From: an uncultured Actinomycetes bacterium
GTDB lineage: Bacteria > Actinomycetota > UBA4738 > HRBIN12
Direction of reading: 5' to 3'
Length of the DNA: 64,000 nucleotides
Assembly (NCBI GenBank): GCA_963821925.1
Contig: CAWGFO010000001.1
Span: forward strand, 521,763 to 585,762
In this document: piece by piece, positions 4,990 to 62,816 of the stretch
Layout of the letters: every line of letters starts with the position of its first letter
Numbering within the stretch: position 1 is the first letter of the stretch
The notes under the pieces: generated by a model
Database searches by the model: none
The model's input: only the letters and a program-made list of their open reading frames with translations
What the model was told of the DNA's origin: nothing
Made by a program: the position numbers and the translations under genes

Positions 4990-5366
4990 GCGCGCCCCAC
5001 TCCTCCCGGCAGCTCGCCGGCCGCCCGCTGCGCCCGGAGCTCCATCGGGTGACGCCGGTACCCGTACGGGATCGCGAGCACGACGTAGACGGGGATGAAC
5101 AACGGCCCCCACGCGCAGTACTGGCGGATGTGATGCCGCTCGTGCGCAAGGAGCGTCCCCGTCACCGGCCGGGCCGACACGATCACGAACCCGATCGTCA
5201 TCGCGGCGCGGTTCGCACGCGGCATCAGGGCGGTGACGCCTCGTGGGGATCGGTCGAAGATCAGCGCCCCGTCGGTGAGGCGCGGGAGCTGGAACGTGAG
5301 CAGCCCGACGACGAGGCCGAGCAGGGTGTTCGGCAGCGTCCAGATGAAACCGAGCCAGGTGGGCAC
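4986..5366 (-). CDS. Small hypothetical membrane-associated protein with HExxH motif
   Basis: 126 aa; WTLPNTLLGL hydrophobic start, LLAHERHHIRQY motif, Y-x2-HP-x-E-x2-A; TACCGT -10-like hexamer 6 nt before the GTG. Confidence 0.65.
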   Translation of the reverse strand: MPTWLGFIWTLPNTLLGLVVGLLTFQLPRLTDGALIFDRSPRGVTALMPRANRAAMTIGFVIVSARPVTGTLLAHERHHIRQYCAWGPLFIPVYVVLAIPYGYRRHPMELRAQRAAGELPGGVGRA

Positions 5367-5461
5367 CCGCGGACGGTACCGCGCGGCCGTCTGGGACGAG
5401 GCTCGTCCCCGGCAGGTTCGTCCCCGGGGCCGGGAAGGACCGAGGGTATCCTCGTGCCGTC

Positions 5462-6868
5462 ATGACCGAGCCCACATCGCCGCCCGGGGGCGCCACGATC
5501 GAGGTCGACCCGCTCGCGGACGAGCTGGGCGCCCTGTTCGAGGCGGCCGGCCACCAGCTGTACCTCGTCGGGGGATCCGTGCGCGACCTCGTGATGGGTC
5601 GGGACCAGGGTGACGAGGCCGACCTGGACTTCTGCACCGATGCGGCGCCCCACGAGACCACGCGCGTGTTGCGCCCGTGGGCCGAGGGGATCTACCTGGT
5701 CGGTGCGAGGTTCGGCACGATCGGCGCCCGCAAGCGCGGACGGATCGTCGAGGTCACGACGTTCCGCGAGGACGTCTACGAGGAGGCGCACCGCAAGCCC
5801 GCGGTGACGTTCGCCAAGGACATCGAGACCGACCTCTCGCGCCGCGATTTCACGATCAACGCGATGGCCGTCCGGCTGCCGGGCGGCGGGTTCGTGGATC
5901 CGTTCGGCGGGGTGCGGCACCTCGCGACGAAGACGCTCGACACGCCGCTCGAGCCGGAGCTCTCGTTCGCGGATGACCCGTTGCGGATGCTGCGGGCGGC
6001 CCGCTTCGTGTCCCAGCTGGAGGTCACGCCCGCGCCCCGCGTGGTCGAGGCGATCGCACGCATGCGGGAGCGCCTCGCGATCGTGAGCGCGGAGCGGATC
6101 GGCGACGAGCTCGTGAAGCTGCTGAACGGCGCCAGGCCGTCGGCAGGGCTCGAGCTGCTCGTGGAGACCGGCCTGGCCGATGAGTTCCTCCCCGAGCTGT
6201 CGGCGCTCAGCCTCGAGCAGGACCCGGTGCACCGGCACAAGGACGTGCTCCGCCATACCTACGCCGTGGTCGAGCGGTGCGAGGCCGAGCCGACCGGGAC
6301 GCTCCGCCTCGCCGCGCTGCTCCACGACATCGGCAAACCGAAGACGCGCGAGATCACGCCGCAGGGCGTGACGTTCCATCACCACGAGGTCGTGGGCGCC
6401 CGCATGGCGGAGGCGCGCCTGCGCGAACTGCGGTTCTCCAACGCGGTGGTCGACGACGTCCGCACGCTCGTGGAGTTGCACCTGCGCTTCCACGGGTACG
6501 GCGAGGGGTGGAGCGACTCGGCCGTGCGGCGCTACGTGCGCGATGCAGGTCCTCTGTTGGACCGGTTGAACCAGCTCACGCGCGCCGACGTCACCACGCG
6601 CAACGAGAACCGAGCGAACGCGTTCGCCCGGCTCCAGGACGACCTGGAGGAGCGGATCGCACGGCTCGCCGAGCAGGAGAACCTCGACGCGTTGCGCCCG
6701 CCGCTCGACGGGCGTCAGGTGATGGAGCACCTCGACCTGCCGCCGGGACCGCAGGTCGGCGAAGCGCTCGCCTTCCTGATGGAGCACCGGATGGAGCGCG
6801 GCCCGATCGAAGAGGCCGAGGCCTTCTCCCTGCTCGACGGGTGGGCGAAGGAGCGAGGACTGCGCTAG
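5462..6868 (+). CDS. cca: CCA tRNA nucleotidyltransferase with HD domain
   Basis: YLVGGSVRD, DLDF, DLSRRDFTINAMA, DDPLRMLRAARF, SAERI-x2-E, then the HD domain (HKDVLRHT...AALLHDIGK...HHEVVGA). Confidence 0.95.
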   Translation: MTEPTSPPGGATIEVDPLADELGALFEAAGHQLYLVGGSVRDLVMGRDQGDEADLDFCTDAAPHETTRVLRPWAEGIYLVGARFGTIGARKRGRIVEVTTFREDVYEEAHRKPAVTFAKDIETDLSRRDFTINAMAVRLPGGGFVDPFGGVRHLATKTLDTPLEPELSFADDPLRMLRAARFVSQLEVTPAPRVVEAIARMRERLAIVSAERIGDELVKLLNGARPSAGLELLVETGLADEFLPELSALSLEQDPVHRHKDVLRHTYAVVERCEAEPTGTLRLAALLHDIGKPKTREITPQGVTFHHHEVVGARMAEARLRELRFSNAVVDDVRTLVELHLRFHGYGEGWSDSAVRRYVRDAGPLLDRLNQLTRADVTTRNENRANAFARLQDDLEERIARLAEQENLDALRPPLDGRQVMEHLDLPPGPQVGEALAFLMEHRMERGPIEEAEAFSLLDGWAKERGLR

Positions 6869-6875
6869 CGCTAAC

Positions 6876-8072
6876 TCAGATCGCCGAGGTCTCTTCGTCG
6901 TCCGGGAGGTGGTCGGCGGCCAGGCCCTCGCCGCCGGCGCGGCGCACGTCGAGGGCGACCGTCACCGCGAGCACCACGAAGACGATGCCGGTCAGACCGG
7001 CCGGGGGGACGCCGCGGCCGGCGAGCGCGGCGGCGAGCAGCAGCCCGATCGCGATCAGGCGTTCCGTCATCACGCCGTCCCAGGCGTGGATGTTCGCCGT
7101 GTGGATCGCCGCGAGGGCCAGCAACACCGCGGCGGGACCTGCGCAGAGCATCAGTCGCGTCGCGAGCGAGAGGCCGTGGTCGGCGTGCGCGCCCGCCTCG
7201 ATCGCGAGTCCGACGCCGACCGCCGTGGCCGCGATCCCCGCGTAGGCGAACAGGTGTCCGTAGCCCCAGAGGAACGCCGCGGCCGCACGGTCGCGCGAGA
7301 GCGCCGAGGATGACACCGTCTCGAAGTACGCCCACCAGATCGCCGCCGCGATGCCGAAGCCGAGGAGCGCGGAGGCGACGGAGCCGCCGTCGAACGACAC
7401 CTCCCCGAGACCGGCCGTGACGGCCACGACACCCTCGCCGAGCACGATGATCGTGAACAGGCCGTACCGCTCCGGGATATGCGTCTGATCGAACGGCTGA
7501 CCTCGGTACGCGCGCACCGCGAAGACCGGCGTGATCATCAGCTCGAGCACCGCCCCCGCCCAGACCCAGTAGCGGAGCGGGGGGTCCACCGCCAGCGAGG
7601 CGAGCATCAGGACCCCGCCGATCGCGGCGCCGATCATGTAGTTGCGCACCAAGCCCCGGGCCTGGCCGGCGTCCGGCCGCACCCGCAGGAACATCACGAT
7701 CAGCAACCCTTGCATCGCGGCATAGGCGAGCACGAACTGCCGATCGTTCGTGCCGTGGAGGACATCGGGGATGCCCGAGGCGAGGATGATCACCAGGAGC
7801 ATCGCCACGAGCGTCGTCAGGCGGTGGAACAGGTCGTCGTTGTCCCAGGCGGTCGCGAACCACGTGAACTCCATCCATGCCCACCACACGGGCACGAAGA
7901 GCAGCGCGAAGTGCCAGAGCCCGGTGAGCGAGGGATCGGTGTGCAGCCCGTCGGCGAGGGCGGCCACCGCCGCCACGAAGCACAGATCGAAGAAGAGCTC
8001 CAGCCACGTGCTCGTGCGGTCTCCGCTGTCGAAGTCCCGCATGGGGGCCGGACGGAACCACCGGCCGGTCAT
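6876..8072 (-). CDS. ltrA: Low temperature requirement protein A family membrane protein
   Basis: TWLELFFDLCFV, WW-x-W-x3-TWF, HIPERYGLFTIIVLGE, WW-x-YF motifs. Confidence 0.9.
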   Translation of the reverse strand: MTGRWFRPAPMRDFDSGDRTSTWLELFFDLCFVAAVAALADGLHTDPSLTGLWHFALLFVPVWWAWMEFTWFATAWDNDDLFHRLTTLVAMLLVIILASGIPDVLHGTNDRQFVLAYAAMQGLLIVMFLRVRPDAGQARGLVRNYMIGAAIGGVLMLASLAVDPPLRYWVWAGAVLELMITPVFAVRAYRGQPFDQTHIPERYGLFTIIVLGEGVVAVTAGLGEVSFDGGSVASALLGFGIAAAIWWAYFETVSSSALSRDRAAAAFLWGYGHLFAYAGIAATAVGVGLAIEAGAHADHGLSLATRLMLCAGPAAVLLALAAIHTANIHAWDGVMTERLIAIGLLLAAALAGRGVPPAGLTGIVFVVLAVTVALDVRRAGGEGLAADHLPDDEETSAI

Positions 8073-11043: not shown

Positions 11044-11699
11044 CTAGTTGATGCCGCCCGCCCGCCCGGGCGGCCAGATCACGAAGTCGGCCTTCCCGAT
11101 CACCTGGTCGAGCGGCACGAACCCGAGACCGAACCGGGAGTCGAGCGAGTTCCCGCGGTTGTCGCCCATCACGAAGAGGGCGCCCTCCGGCACCTTCGTC
11201 TTCGGGAAGTCGTCGGTCTGTCTGCGGTGAGGTAGGGCTCGTCGATCTTGACGCCGTCGACGTAGACGTTGCCCCCCTTGGCCCATACCGTCTCGCCGGG
11301 GAGCCCGATCACCCGCTTGATGAAGTCCTCGTTGTCGGGCGGCGCCGCCCCGAGGCCCTGCACGAGCCAGTGGAAGAAGCCGCCGATCACGCCGCGGTCC
11401 GGCTGCTTCGACGGATCGGGGTCCTCGAACACGATCACGTCGCCGCGCCGCGGATCGTGGAAGTAGTAGGGGACCTTGACCACGATCACGCGGTCGCCGG
11501 GCATCAGGGTCGGCTCCATCGAGCCCGACGGGATGAAGAACGCCTGGACCAGGAACGTCTTGATCAGGAGCGCCAGGACGAACGCCATGAGGATCAGGCC
11601 CGGCAGCTCTCCGAGGAACTGGAGGACGGGATTCCGGTGTTTGGGGGACGTCTCGGGCTCGGGAGCCTCGAGGGAATCCCGCTGGGCGGTCGTCGTCAC
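11044..11699 (-). CDS. lepB: Signal peptidase I, frameshifted near 11220-11230
   Basis: Frame 1 gives the TM helix, IPSGSMEPTL (catalytic Ser) and FIKRVIGLPG (catalytic Lys) up to EPYLT. Frame 2 continues QTDDFP...MGDNRGNSLDSRFG...IWPP. The break lies at a TCTG-TCTG tandem. Confidence 0.88.
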
Positions 11700-12787
11700 C
11701 CGCTCAGGGTACCGGGCGCGGCCCCTTCGTCCGTAAGGAACACGGTCACCTCGACGGCCTTGAAACTGGCCCAGACGTCGCTGCCGGGGGCGAGGCCGAG
11801 GCGCGTGACCGAACCGGCGGTGATCTCGGCCGTCAACGGCGGCCGGCCGTCGATCCGGATCCGTGCTCGTTCGCCGTCGATCGCGACCTCGCCCACGCGC
11901 CCGCGCACGACGTTGCGGGGGGACCCTTCGGGCTCCTCCGCGTGGAGCGCCACGTCGATCGGCTTCAGGGTCGCGACGGCGCGCATCGCGTGCGCGACCG
12001 GCTCCTCGGGCGCCACCGTGATCGTCCCGAGGTCGGTCGTGAGCCTCGCGGCGCCATCCGGGAGGGGTTCGAGCGTGCCGACGAACAGGTTCAGGCCCAC
12101 CAACTCCGCGGCGTAGGCCGACCGCGGTGCCGACCGGATCTCCTCGGGGGTGCCGGTCTGGATCTGGCGGCCCTCCTCGAGCACCGTGACGCGGTCGGCG
12201 AGCGTCAGCGCGTCCACCGGATCGTGGACGACGAGCACCGCCACGCCATCGAAGCCCGCGAGGATCGTCCTGAGCAGGTCGCGGATCTGGGCGCGGGCCG
12301 CGACGTCGACCCCGGCGAGCGGTTCGTCGAGGAGCAGCAGCCGGGGCGTGGTCGCCAGGGCGCGCGCGAGCGCCACCCGCCGCCGCTCACCGCCCGACAG
12401 CGTCCGTGGCTTCGCGCTCGGCTCGACGGCCGGAGCGAGATCGCGCAGCAACGCCACCGCCTGCGCCCGCGCCACCCGTGCATCGCTCCCGCGCGCCCTG
12501 GGTCCGAAGGCGACGTTCTCGAGCACGGACATCGTCGGGAAGAGCAGGTCGTCCTGGAAGCAGACGCCGACCCGTCGGCGATCGGGAGGCGTGGCCTCGA
12601 CCCGGACGCCGTCGAGCTCGACGGTGCCGGCGACTTCGGGCAGGAGTCCGGCGAGCGCCTCCAGGATCGTGGTCTTGCCGGCCCCGTTGGGACCGACGAT
12701 CGCCATCGTCTCCCCGTCGGCGGCCTCGAGCACGACCGCGACCTCGAACGCGCCCCGGCGCAGGGTGAGATCGGCTCGCAGACCCAC
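11696..12787 (-). CDS. modC: Molybdate ABC transporter ATP-binding protein with TOBE domain
   Basis: GPNGAGKTT, LSGGE, LLLDEP, C-terminal SPRN and W-x-SFKA TOBE motifs; follows modB. Confidence 0.9.
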   Translation of the reverse strand: MGLRADLTLRRGAFEVAVVLEAADGETMAIVGPNGAGKTTILEALAGLLPEVAGTVELDGVRVEATPPDRRRVGVCFQDDLLFPTMSVLENVAFGPRARGSDARVARAQAVALLRDLAPAVEPSAKPRTLSGGERRRVALARALATTPRLLLLDEPLAGVDVAARAQIRDLLRTILAGFDGVAVLVVHDPVDALTLADRVTVLEEGRQIQTGTPEEIRSAPRSAYAAELVGLNLFVGTLEPLPDGAARLTTDLGTITVAPEEPVAHAMRAVATLKPIDVALHAEEPEGSPRNVVRGRVGEVAIDGERARIRIDGRPPLTAEITAGSVTRLGLAPGSDVWASFKAVEVTVFLTDEGAAPGTLSG

Positions 12788-12788
12788 G

Positions 12789-13571
12789 TCACCGGCCGCC
12801 CGTCAGGCGGTGACGCATCGAGACGAGCACGACGATCGAGATCACCACGAGGATCAGTGAGAGGAAGATCGCCCCGCCGGGATCCGTCTGCCGAGCCTGG
12901 TAGACGGCCAGCGGCAGGGTCTGTGTCCGTCCCGCCAGGTTCCCCGCGAAGGTGATCGTCGCGCCGAACTCGCCGAGCGCCCGGGCCCAGGCGAGCACGG
13001 CCCCGGCCGCCACCTGCGGCGCCAGCATCGGCAGCACGACCCGCCACATCGCCCGGCTCGGCCGCGCGCCGAGCGTGGCCGCGGCGAGCTCGTAACGCGG
13101 GTCGATCGAGCGCAGACCGGCTTCGGTCGCGATCACGACGAGCGGCATCGACACGAACGTCGCGGCCACGATCGCCCCCCACGTGGTGAAGGTCAGCTGG
13201 ATCCCCAGCGCCTCGTGCAGCCATCGTCCGACGACGCCGCTCCGGCCGAGCGCGAAGAGCAGCCCGAGCCCGCCCACGACCGGCGGGAGCACGAGCGGAA
13301 GGACGACGACAGCCCGCAGCACGGACCGGCCGGGGAACGAACCTCGTGCGAGCACCCACGCGAGGGGAACGCCGAACAGGACCGAGAGCACGGTGGCGCC
13401 GACGGAGACCACCACCGAGAGCCTGAACGCGCTCCCGGCTCCGACGCCGCCGAGCGCCTCGCCCAGATCTCCCCAGGGCGCGCGGACGACGAGCGCGACG
13501 ACGGGGAGCGCGACGAAGGCCGCGCCGATCGCGGCGAGGCAGACCACCGGGAGGGGGAGACGACGGCGCAT
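12789..13571 (-). CDS. modB: Molybdate ABC transporter permease
   Basis: LPLVLPPVVGG, AATLGA EAA loop, WARALGEFGATITFAGNLAGRTQTLPL. Confidence 0.92.
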   Translation of the reverse strand: MRRRLPLPVVCLAAIGAAFVALPVVALVVRAPWGDLGEALGGVGAGSAFRLSVVVSVGATVLSVLFGVPLAWVLARGSFPGRSVLRAVVVLPLVLPPVVGGLGLLFALGRSGVVGRWLHEALGIQLTFTTWGAIVAATFVSMPLVVIATEAGLRSIDPRYELAAATLGARPSRAMWRVVLPMLAPQVAAGAVLAWARALGEFGATITFAGNLAGRTQTLPLAVYQARQTDPGGAIFLSLILVVISIVVLVSMRHRLTGGR

Positions 13572-44321: not shown

Positions 44322-45014
44322 GTGAGCGAGCCGCGGGTCCTGGTCGTCGACGACGAGTCGAACATCACCGACCTCGTGTCGATGGCGCTCCGCTACGAGG
44401 GGTTCGAGGTCGAGACGGCCGCGACGGGTCGCGACGCGATCCGCCTGGTCGAGCGGTTCCGGCCCGAGCTCGTGATCCTCGACGTGATGCTCCCCGACGT
44501 CGACGGTTTCGCCGTCACCGAGCGGCTCAAGAGCGCCCGCGTGAAGGTGCCGATCCTCTTCCTCACGGCGCGCGATGCCGTTGAGGACAAGGTGCGCGGA
44601 CTCACGCTGGGGGGCGACGACTACGTGACGAAGCCGTTCAGCCTCGAGGAGCTCGTCGCCCGCGTACGCGTGCTGCTCCGGCGGGCCGGCGCCGAGGAGG
44701 AGAGCGGACGGCTGGTCTTCGCCGACCTCGAGTTGGACGACGACACCCACGAGGTGCGCCGCGCCGGGGGATCGATCGACCTGACCGCGACGGAGTTCCG
44801 GCTGCTCCGCTACCTGATGCAGAACGCGCCCCGCGTGCTGTCGAAGGCGCAGATCTTGGACCACGTGTGGAACTACGACTTCGGCGGCGACGCGAACATC
44901 GTCGAGACGTACGTGAGCTACATCCGGCGGAAGCTGGACGCGGTGGGTCCGCCGTTGATCCAGACGGTGCGCGGCGTGGGCTACCGGCTGGCGGCGCCGC
45001 CCTCGGAGGACTGA
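44322..45014 (+). CDS. OmpR/PhoB-family response regulator
   Basis: VLVVDDE, ILDVMLP (phospho-Asp), FLTARD, DDYVTKPF, winged helix ..IQTVRGVGY. Confidence 0.95.
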   Translation: MSEPRVLVVDDESNITDLVSMALRYEGFEVETAATGRDAIRLVERFRPELVILDVMLPDVDGFAVTERLKSARVKVPILFLTARDAVEDKVRGLTLGGDDYVTKPFSLEELVARVRVLLRRAGAEEESGRLVFADLELDDDTHEVRRAGGSIDLTATEFRLLRYLMQNAPRVLSKAQILDHVWNYDFGGDANIVETYVSYIRRKLDAVGPPLIQTVRGVGYRLAAPPSED

Positions 45015-45018
45015 CGTC

Positions 45019-46533
45019 GTGACGCTCCGCGCACGGCTCACGCTCGTGCTCATGGTCCTCGTCGCCGCCGGCCTGATCGTGGCCGACGTGGCGACGTTCG
45101 CCGCCCTGCGGTCCTTCCTCGTGCAGCGGGTCGACCAGCAGCTGCAGGCCGCGACCGCACCGATCGGGCGCCTGCTGGCCTCTCCCGACCTGCCGTCGGG
45201 AGAGGTGCCGCTGCCCGGCGACGGCGACGACGCATCCGTGCCATCGGGGACCTACGCCGCCCTGTACGACCCGAACGACCAGGAGGTGAATCACGTCGTC
45301 TTCAGCTACGGCGCGGGCGGGGAGCCGACCCCGGAACTTCCGTCCGACGTGTTGTCGTTCGACGGCCGGTCGCAGCTGTCGACGTCCGGATCGGTGGTCG
45401 GCGGTTCGGACTTCCGTGTGATCGCCGAGCACTTCGAGGGTGGCTACACGGTCGTGATCGCGATCCCGCTCACCGAGGTCCGGCAGACGCTCCGTCAGCT
45501 CTTCGTGGTGGCGGTGTTCGTGACCGTCGCCGTGATCGCGGCGATGGCCGTCCTGGCGTCGTCGATCGTGCGCCGCGGCCTCAGGCCGCTCGAACGGATC
45601 GAGCAGACGGCCGGCGCGATCGCCGCGGGCGACCTCTCCCGCCGCGTCGAGGACGCCGATCCCCGCACCGAGGTGGGGCGCTTGGGCGGCGCGCTCAACG
45701 TGATGCTCGGCAGGATCGAGCGCTCGATGGATGAACAGCGAGCGTCGGAAGAATCTCTCCGTCGGTTCCTGGCCGACGCCTCGCACGAGCTGCGCACGCC
45801 GCTGACCTCGATCCGAGGCTACGCCGAGCTGTTCCGGCGGGGGGCGGGCGACGACCCGGCCGACACCGCGATCGCGATGCGGCGCATCGAACAGGAGAGC
45901 GCGCGGATGGGCGTCCTCGTCGACGATCTGCTGTTCCTGGCGCGCTCCGGCAGGGGTCGCCCGATCGCCCGAGAGCCGTTCGATCTCGCGCGGGTGGCGG
46001 CCGATGCCGTGCAGGATGCGCGAGCGGTCGATCCGTCTCGCGAGATCGGGCTCGAGGCGCCGGGGTCGCTCGTCGTGGTGGGCGACGAGGGCCGGGTCCG
46101 CCAGGTGCTCGCGAACCTGCTCTCGAACGCCCTCACGCACACCCCTGAGGGCTCGGCGATCCAGGTGCGGGCGAGCCAGGCCGACGGGTGGGCAGAGCTC
46201 GCGGTGGCCGACCACGGGCCTGGGCTGACGCCCGTCGAGTCCGCCCACATCTTCGAGGCGTTCTATCGCGCCGACCCGGCGCGTGGCCGCTCGGCCGAGG
46301 CGAACGGCGCGGGCACGGGCCTGGGACTCGCGATCGTGGCCGCGATCGCCGAGGCACACGGCGGGTCGGCGTCGGTGACGAGCGAGCCGGGGGTGGGTGC
46401 CACCTTCACGGTGCGGCTTCCGGTCGCGGGACCGCCAGAGACGACGACGAGCGAAGAGCCAGGGGCGATGCCGGCCGACGCCGACGGGTCCGCCGCTACG
46501 CCGAGCGCGCCCGCCTCGCCGCCTGGAGCTTGA
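45019..46533 (+). CDS. HAMP sensor histidine kinase
   Basis: Two TM helices, HAMP domain, DASHELRTPL H-box, NLLSNA, DHGPG, IFEAFYR, GTGLGLAI. Confidence 0.95.
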   Translation: MTLRARLTLVLMVLVAAGLIVADVATFAALRSFLVQRVDQQLQAATAPIGRLLASPDLPSGEVPLPGDGDDASVPSGTYAALYDPNDQEVNHVVFSYGAGGEPTPELPSDVLSFDGRSQLSTSGSVVGGSDFRVIAEHFEGGYTVVIAIPLTEVRQTLRQLFVVAVFVTVAVIAAMAVLASSIVRRGLRPLERIEQTAGAIAAGDLSRRVEDADPRTEVGRLGGALNVMLGRIERSMDEQRASEESLRRFLADASHELRTPLTSIRGYAELFRRGAGDDPADTAIAMRRIEQESARMGVLVDDLLFLARSGRGRPIAREPFDLARVAADAVQDARAVDPSREIGLEAPGSLVVVGDEGRVRQVLANLLSNALTHTPEGSAIQVRASQADGWAELAVADHGPGLTPVESAHIFEAFYRADPARGRSAEANGAGTGLGLAIVAAIAEAHGGSASVTSEPGVGATFTVRLPVAGPPETTTSEEPGAMPADADGSAATPSAPASPPGA

Positions 46534-46720
46534 GCGCCAGGACGGGACAGGCGGTCACCGCGCGCTGTGCGTGCGCCAGGAGCTGCGGCGGCACCTCCCG
46601 ACGATCGATGATCGGGTACCCCCAGTCGTCGAGACGGATCATCTCCGGCAGCAGGTCGGCGCAGAGACCGTGCCCGTCGCAGGCGATCGGGTCGAGGGTC
46701 AGGGTCATCGGGTCGGGCAT
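46496..46720 (-). CDS. Ferredoxin with CxxHxxC...CP motif
   Basis: CDGHGLC...DDWGYP...ACPVLAL. Confidence 0.88.
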   Translation of the reverse strand: MPDPMTLTLDPIACDGHGLCADLLPEMIRLDDWGYPIIDRREVPPQLLAHAQRAVTACPVLALKLQAARRARSA

Positions 46721-46733
46721 CGTTCGTCCTTCG

Positions 46734-48008
46734 TCAGTAGAGGGGGAGGAGGGCTTGGTCGGGGACCGCGTCGCAGCGGCCGTCGATCCGATGTCGCTCG
46801 ATGTCTGACGCGAACACCTTGAGGCCGCTCCTGACGAACCGCACGGCGCCGTCCGGCAGCCGGCAGGCGCCGCGGCCCTCGACGTCGTCGCTCCACCGGC
46901 GGAGACGGGCGGCCTCGTCGCGACCGCCGCCCCGCACCAGCGACCCGAGCCCGCCCGCGATCGACGCGAGCCCGTGCACGCACGGACCGCACTGGTTCGC
47001 CGTCTGACCCGCGAACCAGGCCGCCACCCGCTCGGTCTCGCGCACGCCGCAGGCGCCGCGCGGCAGGAACCAGATCACGCCGGCACCGAACGCCGTCCCG
47101 TGCGCGGCCAGGTCCGCATCGGTGAGCCGAACCGGCAACGCGTGTTCGACGTCGATCCACGCGCCGAAGTAGCCGCCCACGAGCACCGCGGCCACGTCCT
47201 CGCGGCGTCCGCCCGCCGCGCGCAGGACGTTCGCGACCGGCGTGCCGCCGGCAACCTCGAACACCCCGGGCCGGGTGACGGCGCCCGACACGGTGACCAG
47301 ACGGCTGCCTGGCTCGTCGTCAGCGCCGACCTCACGGAACCAGGCGCCGCCGAACGCCACGATCTGTGCCAGGTGCGCGAGGGTCTCGACGTTCTGGACG
47401 AGGGTGGGCCGACCGTCGACGCCACGTTCGAACGGGCGCGGTCCCAGCGCCGGGATCGCGGGGCCGCCGCCGACCGCGCGGACGAGCGATCGTTCCTCCC
47501 CCGAGAGGTAGCGCCGCGGCACGCGGACGATGTGAACCGTGGCGGCCGGCCGTTCGGGCCCGCGTCGCGCGGCGAGCGCCGTCTCGATCGCCCGGGCGGC
47601 CTCGTCGGTGTCGAGGCCGATCTCGATCCGGTCCGCCCCGACGGCCGCCGCCGCGGCGAGCGCGCCATCGAGCACGAGGTGCGGGCGGGTGGTGAGTAGG
47701 AGCAGGTCCTTCCTGCTCGCGGGCTCGCTCTCGGCGCCGTTGACCACGACGATCGGACGGCGACGGCCCGACGCCACCGCGCGGAGCTTCGTCGCCGTGG
47801 GGAACCCGGCGCCACCGCGCCCGAGGAGTCCCGCGCGTTCGACCTCCTCGATCAGCGCGAGGTCCGCCCCGCGCCGGGGGCGCGGCGGCGCGGGCATCAG
47901 TGACCGGTGCGCCGCGAGATCGGCCGGGCCGCTCGACGCGGGCGTTGCCGCCAAGAGTCGAGGGAGCCCCGTTGGGGCCTCGAGCGCTCGGGGATCGACG
48001 GCGGCCAT
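46734..48008 (-). CDS. Stand-alone NuoF (51 kDa NADH/FMN-binding)-like protein with SLBB and Fe-S domain
   Basis: GLLGRGGAGFPT, NGAESEP, YLSGEE, PTLVQNVETL, VSGAV..PG, GGYFG, NQCGPC...GAC. Confidence 0.88.
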   Translation of the reverse strand: MAAVDPRALEAPTGLPRLLAATPASSGPADLAAHRSLMPAPPRPRRGADLALIEEVERAGLLGRGGAGFPTATKLRAVASGRRRPIVVVNGAESEPASRKDLLLLTTRPHLVLDGALAAAAAVGADRIEIGLDTDEAARAIETALAARRGPERPAATVHIVRVPRRYLSGEERSLVRAVGGGPAIPALGPRPFERGVDGRPTLVQNVETLAHLAQIVAFGGAWFREVGADDEPGSRLVTVSGAVTRPGVFEVAGGTPVANVLRAAGGRREDVAAVLVGGYFGAWIDVEHALPVRLTDADLAAHGTAFGAGVIWFLPRGACGVRETERVAAWFAGQTANQCGPCVHGLASIAGGLGSLVRGGGRDEAARLRRWSDDVEGRGACRLPDGAVRFVRSGLKVFASDIERHRIDGRCDAVPDQALLPLY

Positions 48009-48018
48009 GGCGGGCTCC

Positions 48019-49071
48019 TTACGCCGAGCTTCCGGCGGGCGTCAGGCGGACCATGCCCTGCGCGGTGCCGGCCTGGTCCAGGATCTGCAGGGTGAGGTCG
48101 ACGTCCACGACCGCGCCTGCGGCGTCGGTCAGACGGGCGGAGATCCGCCCGTCGGCGAGCGACTCGATCGTGCCGACATATCGGGCGGACGAGGCGCCCA
48201 GCGACACGCGCCCCCGCTGCACCGCCAGGCCGGTCGAGGTGGCGGTGCCGTCCAGCACGATCTCGATCGGCATCGCCGAGGTATCGAGGGTGCCCACGAT
48301 GTCGAGGACGACGTCTCCACTCTGGCCGGCCTGCTGGCTCGCCTGGCCCGAGAACGCCGACGTCGTCGGGAGCGTCGCGGGAGCCGCCTGCCGGTTACCG
48401 GCGGCCAGGGTCTGCGCGGGGGTGCCCGCGGTGCTCGCCCAGCCGGGGGCAAGGGGTCCCGCCAGGAGCCAGGCCGCGACGGCGAGCGAACCGACCGCGG
48501 TGGCGCCGACGGCCGCGAGCCGCGGGGCCAGCTGCGGCGGTTGCACGCCGTACGCGCGCCACCACACCGCGCCGATCACCGTCGCCACGCAGACTCCCAC
48601 GAGCGCCAGCATCCAGACGGCCTTCGTGTCGCTGCCGGTCCCCAGCCCGTGGACCAGGGCGACCGGCCAGCACGCGTATGCGAGCCAGTGGATCGCCTTC
48701 CACGAGCGATACCCGAGTCGGACCCGCACCAGGCTCGTGATCACGAGGGCGAGCAACAGATCGAAGGCGACCGCCCCCAGACCGAGCCAGACGGGCCGGT
48801 ACGTTCCACCGAACGGAACCACCGCATCCACCCACCGGATCGGGGCGAAGCCGTCGAACACCGACATCGCCACGTGCACGCCGAGGAACGCCACCGCCAG
48901 CAGGGAGATGTTGCGGTGCAGCCCCTGCGTGACGAAGCGTGGCCAGTGCCGGCTCTCCCAGCCCACGGACCCCGTGATCCCCAGGACCACCACCCCGGTC
49001 AGCATCAACAGCGAGAGCGCACCCGTGCCGCGCGTCAGGAACCAGAACGCCTGGGTGCCGGTGTCGTTCAC
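48019..49071 (-). CDS. Ferric reductase-like (MsrQ-type) di-heme membrane protein with extracytoplasmic C-terminal domain
   Basis: Four His in TM helices (GLHRN, GVHV, IHWLAY, VHGLGTGSD); GTGA overlap with the apbE stop. Confidence 0.85.
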   Translation of the reverse strand: MNDTGTQAFWFLTRGTGALSLLMLTGVVVLGITGSVGWESRHWPRFVTQGLHRNISLLAVAFLGVHVAMSVFDGFAPIRWVDAVVPFGGTYRPVWLGLGAVAFDLLLALVITSLVRVRLGYRSWKAIHWLAYACWPVALVHGLGTGSDTKAVWMLALVGVCVATVIGAVWWRAYGVQPPQLAPRLAAVGATAVGSLAVAAWLLAGPLAPGWASTAGTPAQTLAAGNRQAAPATLPTTSAFSGQASQQAGQSGDVVLDIVGTLDTSAMPIEIVLDGTATSTGLAVQRGRVSLGASSARYVGTIESLADGRISARLTDAAGAVVDVDLTLQILDQAGTAQGMVRLTPAGSSA

Positions 49072-49991
49072 GCCGCGGCCTCCAGGGGCCAGCCGCCGGT
49101 TCGGACGATCGACCCGTCGGTGCGCACGAGGCGAGCCGGCATGCCCATACGCTGGAGCCACAAGGCTGCCGGCTCGCCCCGCACGATCGCGGCCGTGGCG
49201 GCGACGTTGGCGTCCACGCAGGTGGCGGCCGCCACGCTCACGGTGCGCCAGACCTCGTTCGCGGGGCGACCGGTCGAGGGGTCGACCACGTGATGGACGG
49301 CTCGGCCTCCCCGGAGCCAACGTCGTACCGTGGTGCTCGAGGTCGCCAGCCCGCCGGCCGCGATCCGCACGGTGTGGCCGGGCTCGGCGGACGCCGCGTG
49401 GGAGTCGGCCAGGCCGACTTCCCATCCATCGCGTGGGGGTGGGCCGGCAACCGCGATGTCCCCACCGAGGCTCACGAGGACGCCGGAACCGGTGGCATCG
49501 AACGCCGCCCGTGCGGACCGATCCGCCGCGAACGCCTTCGCCGTCGCCCCCAGATCCAGTCGGACGCCCCGCGGGATCCGGACCCGCGAACCGGCCGGGT
49601 CGACCTCCACGGTCCGCCAGCCGGGGGCGGCCCGGAGCGCTCCGATCGGTGGCCCGTCGGGATCGAGGCCGGCGAAATCGCGGTCGTACCCGACGAGGAG
49701 CAACGACTCGCCGACCGTCGGGTCGACGTCGCCGTCGGTGAGGATCGCGGCCCGCAGAGCGACCTCGATCGCCTCGATCAGGACCGGATCGACCTCGACC
49801 CACTCGCCGGCACCGTCGTGCAGCCGCGCGAGCTCGCTGTCGGGCCGGAACCGGCTGCAGGTGCGGTCGATCGCGTCGACCTCCTCACGTACCGCCACGA
49901 TCGCGTCGGGGAGCGCCTGGGGAACGGTGGTGACCACCTTGGCCGAGGTGCCGAGGGCGCGGAAGGAGCAGCTGGCCGGGGGGCGCATCAC
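49068..49991 (-). CDS. apbE: FAD:protein FMN transferase without an evident signal peptide
   Basis: FRALGT, CSRFRPDSEL, DPTVG, DLGATAK, GGDI, ATSST, HHVVDPSTG, A-x2-AATA; starts directly at the catalytic core. Confidence 0.9.
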   Translation of the reverse strand: MMRPPASCSFRALGTSAKVVTTVPQALPDAIVAVREEVDAIDRTCSRFRPDSELARLHDGAGEWVEVDPVLIEAIEVALRAAILTDGDVDPTVGESLLLVGYDRDFAGLDPDGPPIGALRAAPGWRTVEVDPAGSRVRIPRGVRLDLGATAKAFAADRSARAAFDATGSGVLVSLGGDIAVAGPPPRDGWEVGLADSHAASAEPGHTVRIAAGGLATSSTTVRRWLRGGRAVHHVVDPSTGRPANEVWRTVSVAAATCVDANVAATAAIVRGEPAALWLQRMGMPARLVRTDGSIVRTGGWPLEAAA

Positions 49992-50299
49992 GAGCCCCCG
50001 GAGACGGCTTGGCCGCCGCCGATCCCCTGTGCGGGCGGGTTCACGGGGGGCTGGAGGCCCGTGCTGCCCGTGGCACCCCAGGCGTCGCCGGGTCCGGTGC
50101 TGGCGAAGCCGGGATCGGTGAGCCCTGGGTCGGTGACGCCGGTGCCGGTGGGCGTCGTCGCCTTCGAGGTGGCGTTCGTACTGGCCCGCGCGACGCCGAC
50201 CGAGATCAGGGCGGCGGCAGAGACGGCGGCGGCCGCGACCCACCCGGTGATCGACCTGATCCGCCGCAGTCCTTCGTCGCGGGCGCGGGGCGTGGGCAT
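49988..50299 (-). CDS. 103-aa secreted low-complexity peptide ending in AVSGGS
   Basis: AGGAGG RBS; GLRRIRSIT plus hydrophobic stretch plus VARA cleavage-like site; Thr/Gly/Pro-rich; GTGA overlap with apbE. Confidence 0.75.
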   Translation of the reverse strand: MPTPRARDEGLRRIRSITGWVAAAAVSAAALISVGVARASTNATSKATTPTGTGVTDPGLTDPGFASTGPGDAWGATGSTGLQPPVNPPAQGIGGGQAVSGGS

Positions 50300-50439
50300 T
50301 CGCGGTCCTCCTAGACGAGAAGGCACTCACCGCCCGGCCGGACCGGGGTCGGAGAGACGGAGGGTGGCCGGCCGAACGGGGTGCCTGTCCTATGCACCTC
50401 GAGTGTGCTGCGGCCGTCTGGGGTCTCCCCGAGAGGAAC

Positions 50440-50455
50440 CTGAGGAAACGATGAG
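50440..50455 (-). promoter_or_regulatory. Tandem box CTCAT-N6-CTCAG upstream of the apbE operon
   Basis: Same 11-bp-period motif as at 44234-44299, oriented towards the operon. Confidence 0.5.
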
Positions 50456-50477
50456 CGTTCGGGGCTGCCCGCCGCGC

Positions 50478-51407
50478 TCAGTAGCGGGTGCCGACGGCCG
50501 GTGGAAGCGCGTCGAGGTCCGCCCGGTCGTCGTCGTCGAGCACGATCGTGGCGGCGGAGAGGTTCTCCTCGAGGTAGCGGAGTCGCTTGGTTCCCGGGAT
50601 CGGCGCGACGTGGGGACCCTGGGCGAGCACCCACGCGAGGGCGATCTGGGCGGGGGTGGCGCCGTGCCGGTCGGCCACCGCCCGCACGCGGTCGACGATC
50701 GCGAGGTTCGCGTCGATCGCCTCGGGCGTGAACCGGGGGTTGTTCGTCCGGAAGTCCAGGTCCTCGAACGATGCCCGGGTGATCGTGCCCGTGAGGAAGC
50801 CGCGGCCCAGCGGTGAGAACGGGACGAACACGACGCCGTTCGCGAGGCACCACGGGACGACGTCGTCGAGCGCCTCGCGCGTCCACAGCGAGAGCTCCGA
50901 CTGGAGCGCCGCCACGGGATGGATCCCGCGCGCCGCCTCGAGCTGCTCGATCGTCACCTCCGAGAGGCCGAGGGCGCGCACCTTCCCGGCCTCGACGAGA
51001 CCGGCCATCGCTCCCCACGACTCCTCGAAGGGCACGCCAGGGTCGATCCGGTGGAGGTAGTACAGGTCGATCTCGTCCACGCGCAGACGGCGGAGCGACG
51101 CCTCGACCGCGCCCATGATGTGCTCGGGCCGGGCGTCGTTCACGAGTGGGTAGCCGCCGTTCGGACCGACGAGGAGCCCGACCTTCGTCGCGATCCCGAC
51201 GCGATCGCGGACGGGCTCGAGTGCCTCGCCCACGAGCTCCTCGTTCGTGAACGGGCCATAGACGTCGGACGTGTCGACGTGCGTCACGCCGAGCTCGACC
51301 GCGCGCCGGATCAGGGCGATCGGATCGTCGTCGGTATCGCCGAAGTACCCGAAGGACATCGGCATGCACCCGAGCCCGATGCCACGGAACGCGTCGCGGA
51401 GGTCCAC
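50478..51407 (-). CDS. Aldo/keto reductase
   Basis: IGLGCMPMS, DTSDVYG, IATKVG, IDLYYLHR, GLSE, PFSPLGRG, PIPGTK. Confidence 0.93.
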   Translation of the reverse strand: MDLRDAFRGIGLGCMPMSFGYFGDTDDDPIALIRRAVELGVTHVDTSDVYGPFTNEELVGEALEPVRDRVGIATKVGLLVGPNGGYPLVNDARPEHIMGAVEASLRRLRVDEIDLYYLHRIDPGVPFEESWGAMAGLVEAGKVRALGLSEVTIEQLEAARGIHPVAALQSELSLWTREALDDVVPWCLANGVVFVPFSPLGRGFLTGTITRASFEDLDFRTNNPRFTPEAIDANLAIVDRVRAVADRHGATPAQIALAWVLAQGPHVAPIPGTKRLRYLEENLSAATIVLDDDDRADLDALPPAVGTRY

Positions 51408-60767: not shown

Positions 60768-62816
60768 ATGCAGGAAGAGATCAGGATCGAGGCCACCATC
60801 GATCCCGCGCGGCTGTTCGCCGCGGGCCCCGAGGCGATGCTCGTGCTGCGCGCGGGCCGCGTGGCGTGCGCGAACGAGCGCGCCGACGAGCTGGCCGGGC
60901 GCGATCTCTCGGAGCTCGACGTGCGGGAGGTGTTCCCTGACTGGCCCGAGGAGCCCGATGACGCCGTGCCGTTCGAAACCACGCTCGTCAGGCCCGACGG
61001 CGCCGAGCTCCCCGTCGAGATCCGGATGCGACGGCTCGCCGCCGATCTCGTGGTCGCGTCGATCCGGGACGCGCGCCATCTGATCGCCGGTCGCGAGGCG
61101 CAGGAGGCGCTGGCGGAGGCGGAGGCCCGCTACCGGAGCCTCGTGGAGCAGATCCCCGCGGTGGTCTACGCGGACACCGGGGACGAGACGATCTACGTGA
61201 GCCCGCAGATCGAGCAGATCCTGGGGGTGACGCCCGAGGCCTATCGCACCCAACCCGAGCTGTGGCTGAACATGGTGCATCCCGACGACCGCTCGACGGT
61301 CGAGGCCGAGAGCGAGGCCTTCATCGCGGGGGTCGGAGGCGATCTCGCGGACTACCGCATGGTCCGACCCGACGGCCGCGTGGTGTGGGTCCGCGACCGC
61401 GCGTACGCCGAACGCGACCAGTCCGGCCGCGTCGTCTTCGAGCACGGGATCCTCTTCGATGTCACCGAGCTGAAGGAGGCCGAGGCCCGTGTGGCGCACA
61501 TGGCCTTCCACGACGCGCTGACCGGGCTCGCGAATCGGCAGCTGTTCGAGGAGGCCCTCACGCTCGCGGTCGAACGCGCGAAGCGCGACCAGACCGTGGT
61601 CGCGGTGCTCTTCCTCGACCTCGACAACTTCAAGCTCGTGAACGACTCGCTCGGCCACCACGCGGGCGACCGGATGTTGATCGAGCTCGCCGACCGACTC
61701 CGCGCGTGCACGCGCGAGACCGACCTCGTGGCACGGCAGGGCGGGGACGAGTTCCTGCTGCTCCTGGCCGATCTCCATGGCGACGACGTACACGACGCGG
61801 TGCAGGCGGTGGTCGAGCGCGTGTACGAGGCGCTTGACGACCCGTTCGAACTGCAGGGGAGCGAATTCCACGCGCGCGGATCGATGGGGATCAGCCTGTA
61901 CCCGCAGGACGCGGTCGACGCCGAGGAGCTCCTGAAGACCGCCGACATCGCGATGTACCGGGCCAAGCGGCTCGAGCCGGGAGGCCACGTGTTCTTCGCG
62001 GCCGATCCCGAGGACGCGCTCGACCGGCTGTCGTTCGCGACGCGCCTGCGGCAGGCGGTGCAGGACGAGAACTGGCTGCTCCACTATCAGCCGGTGGTGG
62101 ACCTGTCCGACCGACGGGTGGTCGGCGCCGAGGCGCTGATCCGCTGGAACGACGTCCACGGCGGCATCGTTCCGCCCGGTGAGTTCATCCCGGTGGCCGA
62201 GGAGCTCGGCCTGATCGAGGCGATCGGCGACTGGGTCGTCGACGAGGTCGCCCAGCAGCAACGCGCGTGGCGCGACGCGGGCCTCGATCTGGAGGTCTCA
62301 TTCAACCTCTCGCCGCGCCAGCTGTGGACCCCGAGACTGGCCGAGCGCTTGATCGCGAAGTTCGGCGACGCGGGGCTCGATCCGTCGACCCTGCAGGCCG
62401 AGATCACGGAGTCCACCGTGATGGCCGACCCCGACCGGACGCAGCGGATCCTGCGCGACCTGCATGCATGGGGCCTCCGGCTCGCGATCGACGACTTCGG
62501 CACCGGCTACTCGTCGCTCGCCCGCCTCAAGCACATGCCCGTCGACGTGTTGAAGATCGACCAGGAGTTCATCCGCAACGTCGATCGGGACGTGCGTCTG
62601 GCCGGGATGGTGCGGGCGATGATCCAGGTGGCGCAGTCGCTCGACATGGTCCCGCTCGCCGAGGGGGTCGAGACCGAGGGCGAGTACGTGTTCCTCAGGT
62701 CGAACGGCTGCCGCCTCGCGCAGGGCTTCTGGTTCGCGTACCCGGTGCCGGCCGAAGAGATCGCCGACCTCGCCTCGCGTCCGGAAGGTCTCGGCTCGCC
62801 GACCGTCCACCACTGA
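60768..62816 (+). CDS. PAS-PAS-GGDEF-EAL diguanylate cyclase/phosphodiesterase
   Basis: PAS/PAC motifs (HPDDR, RMVRPDG..W-x-RD); HDALTGLANR, LDLDNFK-x-VND-x2-GH, RETD I-site and GGDEF; EAL, DDFGTGYSS, KID, EGVE. Confidence 0.95.
   Translation: MQEEIRIEATIDPARLFAAGPEAMLVLRAGRVACANERADELAGRDLSELDVREVFPDWPEEPDDAVPFETTLVRPDGAELPVEIRMRRLAADLVVASIRDARHLIAGREAQEALAEAEARYRSLVEQIPAVVYADTGDETIYVSPQIEQILGVTPEAYRTQPELWLNMVHPDDRSTVEAESEAFIAGVGGDLADYRMVRPDGRVVWVRDRAYAERDQSGRVVFEHGILFDVTELKEAEARVAHMAFHDALTGLANRQLFEEALTLAVERAKRDQTVVAVLFLDLDNFKLVNDSLGHHAGDRMLIELADRLRACTRETDLVARQGGDEFLLLLADLHGDDVHDAVQAVVERVYEALDDPFELQGSEFHARGSMGISLYPQDAVDAEELLKTADIAMYRAKRLEPGGHVFFAADPEDALDRLSFATRLRQAVQDENWLLHYQPVVDLSDRRVVGAEALIRWNDVHGGIVPPGEFIPVAEELGLIEAIGDWVVDEVAQQQRAWRDAGLDLEVSFNLSPRQLWTPRLAERLIAKFGDAGLDPSTLQAEITESTVMADPDRTQRILRDLHAWGLRLAIDDFGTGYSSLARLKHMPVDVLKIDQEFIRNVDRDVRLAGMVRAMIQVAQSLDMVPLAEGVETEGEYVFLRSNGCRLAQGFWFAYPVPAEEIADLASRPEGLGSPTVHH

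Follow-up and report, generated by a model that had tools for sequence, protein, structure and literature searches.

A conserved actinobacterial electron-transfer operon encoding ApbE, an MsrQ-like membrane protein and a mini-protein that is a candidate ApbE substrate

We describe a five-gene operon in a stretch of 64,000 nucleotides (nt), hereafter the window, from an uncultured Actinomycetes bacterium (GTDB lineage UBA4738; HRBIN12; assembly GCA_963821925.1, contig CAWGFO010000001.1, positions 521,763 to 585,762 of the forward strand). The operon encodes a small protein, the flavinylating enzyme ApbE, a ferric-reductase/MsrQ-like membrane protein, a NuoF-like protein and a ferredoxin. We have high confidence that it is a conserved transmembrane electron-transfer operon. 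On balance, it probably carries electrons from reduced nicotinamide adenine dinucleotide, with or without its phosphate (NAD(P)H), through the NuoF-like protein, the ferredoxin and two b hemes to a flavin mononucleotide (FMN) on the small protein, and would then be an electron-export variant of the MsrQ-like systems.

Results

Organization of the operon

Five co-oriented open reading frames (ORFs), translationally coupled, span positions 46496-50299 on the minus strand. Lengths are in amino acids (aa).

49988-50299, minus strand: small ORF, 103 aa; ATG at 50299, with GGAGGA upstream at 50306-50311; no match in Pfam or NCBIfam
50177-50299, minus strand: N-terminal basic motif and hydrophobic segment of the small protein; signal anchor or cleavable signal peptide, predicted to be N-in/C-out
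49991-50005, minus strand: last five codons of the small gene (V-S-G-G-S, then the stop); candidate site of flavinylation by ApbE, where Ser103, the last residue, would carry the FMN
49068-49991, minus strand: ApbE, 307 aa; PF02424, E=1e-51; its GTG start overlaps the TGA of the small ORF
48019-49071, minus strand: Ferric_reduct/MsrQ-like membrane protein, 350 aa; PF01794, E=2e-8, 34.5 bits against a cut-off of 28
48457-49071, minus strand: six-helix ferric-reductase/MsrQ-like domain of this protein; PF01794; His pairs H52/H66 and H128/H141
48037-48363, minus strand: its C-terminal domain, attached behind helix 6 and made of eight long antiparallel β-strands; predicted to be extracytoplasmic and proposed as a dock for the flavinylated tail
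46734-48008, minus strand: NuoF-like protein, 424 aa, predicted to be of the NAD(P)H/FMN/[4Fe-4S] type; PF01512 (8e-35), PF10531 (2e-9) and PF10589 (3e-14)
46496-46720, minus strand: ferredoxin, 74 aa; PF13459, E=3e-14

Stop and start codons overlap in a GTGA at 49988-49991 (small ORF and apbE) and again at 49068-49071 (apbE and the membrane-protein gene). The gap of 10 nt between the membrane-protein and nuoF-like genes (48009-48018) contains a Shine-Dalgarno-like GGAG, and the gap of 13 nt between the nuoF-like and ferredoxin genes (46721-46733) an AAGGA of the same kind. This is the one-strand operon that an earlier note on this DNA had drawn from the letters alone, with the same ORFs, positions, overlaps and gaps. 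Its remark that no FMN_bind-domain protein is encoded also stands, PF04205 giving no match at E≤1 among the five products; Pfam gave no match to DUF2271 or DUF3570 among them either. The GC content of the window is 70-76%. A scan of 46300-50600 for promoters and terminators returned nothing, as expected, because E. coli-type consensus patterns were applied to an actinobacterial sequence of 74% GC.

Conservation in related loci

Among the candidates scored, 3,706 relatives of the membrane protein were full-length, including its C-terminal half, at E≤1e-3. Scanning one genome per species yielded over 560 loci, of which the best 80 (40-51% identity) are the basis of the locus counts given here. 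Their sources are Solirubrobacterales/Thermoleophilia, Acidimicrobiales and Actinomycetes, with Actinocrinis and a Streptosporangiaceae metagenome-assembled genome (MAG) among the last of these, and also one Limnocylindria MAG and one MAG labelled Acidobacteria. In this neighbourhood check, which the earlier note had suggested, the order apbE, msrQ-like, nuoF-like, ferredoxin was found again in most of the 80 independent loci. The nuoF-like gene lies directly 3' of the msrQ-like gene in 68 of them (5 of the remaining 12 are cut by a contig end), and the ferredoxin gene comes next in nearly all of those 68; apbE lies directly 5' of the msrQ-like gene in about 58. No alternative electron donor was seen downstream of the msrQ-like gene in the loci without a nuoF-like gene. 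On a syntenic contig annotated by NCBI (L081), independent gene calls gave products of 102, 306, 350, 424 and 74 aa, and seven genes are matched in the same arrangement, which starts with an aldo/keto reductase and continues with the small gene, ApbE, Ferric_reduct, NuoF-like and Fer4_15, then a convergent kinase and regulator. Because the gene order recurs in most of the 80 loci and on this annotated contig, the arrangement is far beyond chance.

Some loci are duplicated. Single MAGs contain paralogous pairs of loci, one with apbE and one without (L018/L029 and L003/L067), in which one ApbE may serve two pairs of small protein and MsrQ-like protein. In L008, a tandem duplication (4696-7071) consists of a small gene, a truncated msrQ-like gene, a second small gene and a full msrQ-like gene, and both small genes end in VVSGGS.

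The small protein

The small protein of the window consists of a basic N-terminus (RDxGLRRI..ITGW), a single hydrophobic segment ending in ARA, a variable linker rich in G, S, T and P, and the conserved last 23 residues, GLQPPVNPPAQGIGGGQAVSGGS. Its 22 close homologues are all named 'hypothetical' in public sources and have no Pfam domain. Their alignment (A3) shows conservation at both ends, in the N-terminal motif with the hydrophobic segment and in the 23 C-terminal residues (GLQPPxNPPxQGxGGGQAVSGGS), and a variable middle with in-frame insertions and deletions. The ORF directly upstream of apbE in the related loci has little overall sequence similarity to that of the window and shares its architecture. 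A basic N-terminus with the consensus RDxGLrR(I/V)sRxTRW leads into a single hydrophobic segment, followed by a tail of low complexity that is 37-151 residues long, a LQPPxQxP-like motif and the end V/T-S-G-G-S, or SGGT or SGAS in some members.

An ORF ending in [ST]G[GA][ST] immediately before its stop is present at the expected position, upstream of apbE or, if apbE is absent, of msrQ, in 71 of the 80 loci; 3 of the 9 others are cut by a contig end. The same ending precedes only 87 of the 25,582 six-frame stops in these loci, and about 70 of the 87 lie at the small-ORF position. Where apbE is not adjacent, the small gene stands directly upstream of the membrane-protein gene and keeps this ending (L003, L011, L018, L019, L023, L082 and others). 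We therefore rejected the explanation that the C-terminal conservation is a by-product of the overlap with the apbE start. That the small ORF is a frameshifted N-terminal anchor of ApbE was rejected as well: it is a separate ORF with its own stop and a conserved C-terminus in 71 of the 80 loci, and the gene is kept directly upstream of the msrQ-like gene where apbE is absent. In a profile search of 1.84 billion representative proteins, the family comprised 110 clusters (50% identity), almost all of which align end to end. The ending [ST]G[GA][ST] is found in 101 of the 110 representatives, the canonical SGAT and SGAS included, and most of the others end in [ST]GSS. By these comparisons, the small protein appears to found a new family, without a match in Pfam.

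In a set of 132 relatives of the small protein, 131 have an N-terminus with a net positive charge, and in 121 this end is more positive than the tail. The hydrophobic segment closes with an AxA in 111 of the relatives, never followed by Pro, and 69% of the tail residues are G, S, A, P or T. Because of this positive N-terminus, the AxA site and the composition of the tail, the protein is predicted to be N-in and C-out, either as a signal anchor or with its signal peptide cleaved.

ApbE and the candidate flavinylation site

The second product has the PF02424 fold and the conserved blocks of ApbE, and FMN transfer by it is predicted. LDLGATAKA, GGLATSS, HH..DP.TG and dAN.AsTA are conserved in more than 50 loci, the blocks for binding flavin adenine dinucleotide (FAD) and Mg and that of the catalytic His are kept, and the best PDB relatives are TM1553 (E=5e-34) and Treponema pallidum Ftp. 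The presence of a signal peptide was judged from the start position relative to the conserved ALGT core and from upstream in-frame stops. ApbE begins about 11 residues before the core; the small-gene stop lies 15-74 nt ahead of the core in 52 of 53 loci, and in 9 loci an in-frame stop leaves at most 25 codons upstream of it. A signal peptide is lacking from the ApbE of the window and of every related locus whose small ORF is intact, and the extracytosolic action that the earlier note had assumed for ApbE is thus not borne out. The sole hydrophobic in-frame extension, in L032, arises from a frameshift: there, the N-terminal part of the small protein lies in the apbE frame (about 4727-5054) through a frameshift or an assembly error, and the near-identical L034 is intact (4746-5054).

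ApbE puts FMN on the last Ser/Thr of D-x-x-[S/T]-G-A-[S/T], and these seven residues suffice; changing the Asp to Ala has a minor effect, changing the Ala to Val or the Gly to Ala lowers flavinylation by about 50% without abolishing it, and short artificial tags are most efficient at protein termini (PMC12052999). In FMN reductases, a flavinylated Ser on a C-terminal extension is documented (PMC11334425). The end of the small protein fits the motif at [S/T] −3, at Gly −2 and at the terminal [S/T] acceptor (VSGGS in the window), and no conserved S/T-G-A/G-S/T motif was found in the other operon products. The small-gene stop and the apbE start overlap as NTGA in 35 of 52 loci (28 GTGA, 6 ATGA and 1 TTGA). 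Because of the C-terminal motif resembling that of ApbE targets, the overlap with apbE and the lack of a conserved motif in the other products, the small protein is the likely target, and ApbE probably flavinylates its terminal Ser. In Listeria, flavinylation outside the cytosol needs an FAD exporter of the EetB/FmnA type (PMC9973259); none is encoded in the operon or near the syntenic locus.

The membrane protein and its β-domain

Histidines H52, H66, H128 and H141 are invariant in the alignment of the membrane protein (A1), with spacings HX13H and HX12H. The two pairs are placed on helices 2 and 4 of the six predicted helices, equivalent to helices 3 and 5 of NOX/STEAP, a sequence pattern that would fit two stacked b hemes on two transmembrane helices. 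A full-length AlphaFold2 (AF2) model matches STEAP2, STEAP1 and cytochrome b561 with probability 0.98-1.0 and weak E-values. Loops 1, 3 and 5 contain nine K/R residues, against four on the opposite side. From these loop charges and the NOX/STEAP helix register, we infer that the N-terminus and the C-terminal domain are outside.

Modelled alone by AF2, the C-terminal domain forms an eight-strand antiparallel meander (predicted local distance difference test score (pLDDT) 89.7, predicted template-modelling score (pTM) 0.81). It is present in thousands of homologues, at about 97% coverage. Foldseek returned weak PDB matches only, to an avidin permutant and to designed fluorogen-binding barrels (template-modelling score ≤0.48, E≥2e-3). 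As modelled, it appears to be a new conserved extracytoplasmic domain without a confident structural relative. A cryptic FMN_bind or DUF2271 domain was rejected, as there is neither a Pfam nor a structural match. A flavinylation site within the domain was also rejected, as there is no conserved motif column and the motifs present in 34 of 120 homologues are only incidental. Only 1 of 120 MsrQ-like homologues has a motif-like C-terminal end, and evidence from fusions ('Rosetta stone') is uninformative.

The NuoF-like protein and the ferredoxin

The NuoF-like protein has the three-domain architecture and the FMN/NADH motif (GRGGAxFP, conserved) of complex I NuoF (Nqo1) and of RnfC, and it aligns to Thermus thermophilus Nqo1 with E=4e-46. 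Unlike complex I NuoF, it scores far below the equivalog cut-off (191.8 bits for NCBIfam nuoF TIGR01959, cut-off 558.65), it lacks the first cysteine of the N3 cluster, and it has no NuoE or NuoG partner: neither these nor other nuo genes are adjacent in the window or in the syntenic locus, in agreement with the earlier note. Its membership of complex I was rejected on the grounds of the score and the missing partners. The ferredoxin has a single-cluster CxxHxxC...CP spacing, with the consensus C.aHGlCAEL...aCP in 61 loci. We take this pattern to mark actinobacterial [3Fe-4S] ferredoxins, and we assign the cluster type of the operon ferredoxin from the motif.

Neighbouring genes

Two genes identified by Pfam are convergent with the operon.

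44322-45014, plus strand: OmpR-type response regulator
45019-46533, plus strand: HAMP histidine kinase

The kinase and ferredoxin genes overlap tail to tail by 38 nt (46496-46533), and L081 has the same convergent overlap (11596-11820 against 11783-13240). About 47-50 of the 80 loci have a related regulator/kinase pair at a distance of up to 6 kb from the operon, in an upstream, divergent or convergent position. This recurrence suggests a dedicated regulator, and the pair is likely the regulatory partner of the operon.

On the other side, an aldo/keto reductase gene (50478-51407, PF00248, E=1e-69) lies directly upstream of the small ORF on the same strand, with a spacer of 178 nt. It has the same position in L081 and not in more distant loci. 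In 19 loci (e.g. L035, 8485-9156) the operon has another membrane-protein gene next to it, which is absent from the window; its product, about 223 aa long, contains several hydrophobic segments and conserved histidines and has no Pfam match. In 13 related loci, a 630-aa protein, which we judge from its sequence to be a receiver plus GGDEF/EAL-like protein, is encoded near the operon; a 40%-identical relative lies about 11 kb away in the window (about 61467-62762). Clustering of the neighbours of the 80 loci gave no conserved acceptor gene, only the two-component system, the 223-aa membrane protein and unrelated genes.

Discussion

The earlier note had proposed a wire from NADH through the NuoF-like protein, the ferredoxin and the di-heme membrane protein to a flavinylated surface peptide. 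The co-conservation of the genes, the invariant histidines and the C-terminal motif make this the best-supported reading, one whose cofactors, flavinylation, docking, electron transfer and direction of flow we infer. That account was incomplete in that it did not include the C-terminus of the peptide as the key feature, the second domain of the membrane protein or the accompanying two-component system. We propose that the NuoF-like protein would oxidise NAD(P)H on FMN and hand single electrons, via an Fe-S cluster, to the [3Fe-4S]-type ferredoxin, which would dock on the positively charged cytoplasmic loops of the membrane protein. The electrons would then cross the membrane by the b hemes, the inner one held by H52/H128 and the outer one by H66/H141. 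On the outside, the acceptor would be an FMN joined by a phosphoester to the terminal Ser of the small protein (...V-S-G-G-S-COOH) and installed by the co-translated ApbE. The last ~23 residues of the small protein and their flavin probably sit on the β-domain, together replacing the FMN_bind domain of related systems. Candidates for the final acceptor are Fe(III), another extracellular oxidant or an envelope reductase.

How the flavin would reach the outside has to be considered together with the location of ApbE. Because this enzyme lacks an export signal and the neighbouring genes include no FAD exporter, it is possible that the C-terminus is flavinylated in the cytoplasm by the co-translated ApbE before the tail is exported; this is the simplest reconciliation, and we put it forward as a tentative one. 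The Sec pathway tolerates small adducts, and the twin-arginine translocation (Tat) pathway is able to carry small unstructured hydrophilic proteins. We speculate, with equal reserve, that the small protein represents a new class of ApbE substrate: a natural C-terminal flavin tag that would be loaded in the cytoplasm, exported with its cofactor and plugged into the β-domain above the outer heme. If this is true, the export of a pre-loaded mini-protein would remove the need for FAD export, and the mini-protein would be a tethered flavin, or a released one if the signal is cleaved.

Several points weigh against the proposed wire as a whole. An ApbE without a signal and a target whose end is predicted to be exported are topologically at odds, and the order of flavinylation first and export afterwards is a speculative solution. 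Export by Tat is not established: 97 of the 132 relatives of the small protein have a twin-arginine within 14 residues of the hydrophobic region, L020 and L053 have none, and that of the window protein is poorly placed, so that the feature is frequent and not invariant. The motif itself is non-canonical, with mostly Gly at −1 (Ala in a minority, Ser rarely), a variable −6 and never a conserved Asp, and an adjacent apbE is missing in about 22 of the 80 loci. In the NuoF-like protein, C340, C343 and C382 correspond to three of the four N3 cysteines of Nqo1 and the first is replaced by Ala/Gly, which makes its cluster chemistry uncertain; C320 or C412, two further cysteines conserved in the family, might supply the fourth ligand. 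In the full-length AF2 model the membrane part is moderate, with a pLDDT of about 70. The role of the β-domain as a dock for the flavin-bearing tail is a guess from its position, by analogy with the MsrQ-FMN_bind fusions that have been described (PMC11334425), and the structure search found no FMN_bind-like or other flavin-binding-fold similarity in the model of the domain. Finally, full-text literature searches for MsrQ-like systems, and for ApbE together with NuoF, ferric reductase and Actinobacteria, found papers of the Light laboratory only, and no experimental study.

The main rival explanation leaves the tail of the small protein in the cytoplasm, where the FMN loaded by ApbE would work, for example from the ferredoxin or the NuoF-like protein to the inner heme, with nothing flavinylated being exported. 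It would account simply for an ApbE that has no signal peptide in the related loci (the exception in L032 being a frameshift) and for a cluster without an FAD exporter, and both cytosolic ApbEs and cytosolic pairs of ApbE and substrate are known (PMC12052999). The charge of the small protein points the other way, 131 of 132 relatives having a net positive N-terminus and 121 of 132 a tail that is less positive than it. So does the signal-peptidase-like AxA with which the hydrophobic segment closes in 111 of 132. Moreover, tails rich in G, S, A, P and T resemble actinobacterial extracellular linkers, and the NuoF-like protein already gives FMN and Fe-S on the cytoplasmic side, where an extra flavin would have no obvious role. 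For these reasons we consider a cytoplasmic tail unlikely. One may also ask whether the small protein is an ApbE substrate at all, since its motif has G for A and no Asp and about 22 of the 80 loci keep the small gene without an adjacent apbE; its C-terminus could then serve for docking on the β-domain, for another modification or for sorting, and the target of ApbE would be encoded elsewhere. However, a stop/start overlap links the small gene to apbE in 35 of 52 loci, and some family members end exactly in SGAT or SGAS. A conserved S/T-G-A/G-S/T is seen in none of the other operon products, and a MAG whose locus lacks apbE can have a second locus with it, as in the pairs L018/L029 and L003/L067. 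We rank this possibility below that of a cytoplasmic tail.

A last alternative concerns the destination of the electrons. The membrane protein might be an MsrQ-type supplier of one envelope enzyme, such as an MsrP-like methionine-sulfoxide reductase, or an assimilatory iron reductase, instead of a general outlet. Public sources annotate its homologues as YedZ/MsrQ, some MsrQ-like clusters are linked to VIT1 iron transport (PMC8238504), and tight control by a two-component system would fit a response to stress or nutrients. Against this, no gene for an MsrP-like protein, VIT1 or another acceptor is present in the operon or in the flanks of the syntenic locus, and neighbour clustering of the 80 loci gave no conserved acceptor gene. 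We rate it the least probable of the three; it touches the last step only and is compatible with the export of electrons to a flavin on the mini-protein, which remains the reading we favour.

The kind of system to which the operon belongs is known from bioinformatics. Méheust et al. (2021, eLife) catalogued 1,797 MsrQ-like flavinylation clusters, which are mainly actinobacterial and widely conserved in Actinobacteria. A NAD-binding domain is fused in most of them, 31 have a cytosolic NuoF-like (PF10589) protein in its stead, and they 'typically include' a gene with an FMN_bind domain (PMC8238504). The earlier note knew of no characterised system of this composition, which holds in the sense that we found no experimental study and does not hold for the composition as such, already catalogued in those 31 clusters. 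As in the MsrQ-like systems, which have a PF01794 gene within five genes of apbE and a cytosolic NAD(P)H module, the PF01794 gene here is directly downstream of apbE and is followed, 10 nt downstream, by the gene for a PF01512/PF10531/PF10589 protein. Their definition further asks for a signal peptide or lipobox on ApbE or on an FMN_bind, DUF2271 or DUF3570 protein, and here there is none. The operon also differs from them in having an unannotated mini-protein as the presumed substrate, a membrane protein extended by a further helix and the β-domain, and a separate ferredoxin. This variant, with its mini-protein, signal-less ApbE, β-domain and ferredoxin, is not described in the literature searched. 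The pipeline of Méheust et al. kept ApbE and FMN_bind genes only if a signal peptide or lipobox was predicted for them (PMC8238504), a filter that would presumably exclude most members of the present family.

Two precedents bear on the substrate. The engineered Flavin-tag of Tong et al. (2021), as reviewed in PMC12052999, is a short unstructured peptide ending in S/T-G-A-S/T that is flavinylated by ApbE. It is an artificial sequence in which the Asp and the Ala are retained, whereas the ending found here is natural, mostly S-G-G-S, and located at the extreme C-terminus after a disordered tail on a mini-protein predicted to be exported. Flavinylated FMN reductases and Flavodoxin_4 proteins, with the Ser on a C-terminal extension, show that ApbE can also act on substrates other than FMN_bind domains (Huang et al. 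2024, mSystems; PMC11334425). In contrast with the candidate carrier described here, which has no folded domain, the Ser of those proteins belongs to a folded flavoprotein that holds the flavin.

The membrane protein resembles NOX, FRE and STEAP proteins and E. coli MsrQ (YedZ) in its HX13H and HX12H pairs on two helices, in the predicted two stacked b hemes and in its STEAP/b561-like fold. NOX and FRE have a fused FAD/NAD dehydrogenase domain and STEAP an F420-type domain, whereas the membrane protein has neither. Compared with NOX, its first helix appears to be missing, and an extra helix would take the C-terminal domain outside. MsrQ sensu stricto pairs with the periplasmic molybdoenzyme MsrP, and no such enzyme is encoded in the operon or by the Pfam-annotated neighbours of L081 and L082. 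The operon shares with the extracellular electron transfer system of Listeria monocytogenes (Ndh2, EetA/B, FmnA, FmnB and PplA), also from a Gram-positive bacterium, the proposed delivery of NADH electrons to a surface protein flavinylated by ApbE. Unlike it, the operon has no counterpart of the quinone, the lipoprotein PplA with its FMN_bind domains, the secreted ApbE FmnB or the energy-coupling factor (ECF) FAD exporter (PMC9973259).

Flavinylated proteins are a main route for electrons beyond the cytoplasm in Gram-positive and other bacteria. Surveys have sought folded flavin-carrying domains together with a secreted ApbE, and a family like that of the small protein would stay hidden from them. 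Soil Solirubrobacterales, Acidimicrobiales and related uncultured Actinomycetota commonly have this system, and their extracellular redox capacities are, to our knowledge, essentially undescribed. If the mini-protein is flavinylated, ApbE would serve unstructured natural peptides, its motif would widen to S-G-G-S at a free C-terminus, and a compact natural tag would become available for protein engineering. Moreover, with a signal-less ApbE and a target predicted to be exported, it becomes a testable question whether bacteria can export a cofactor already loaded on its carrier.

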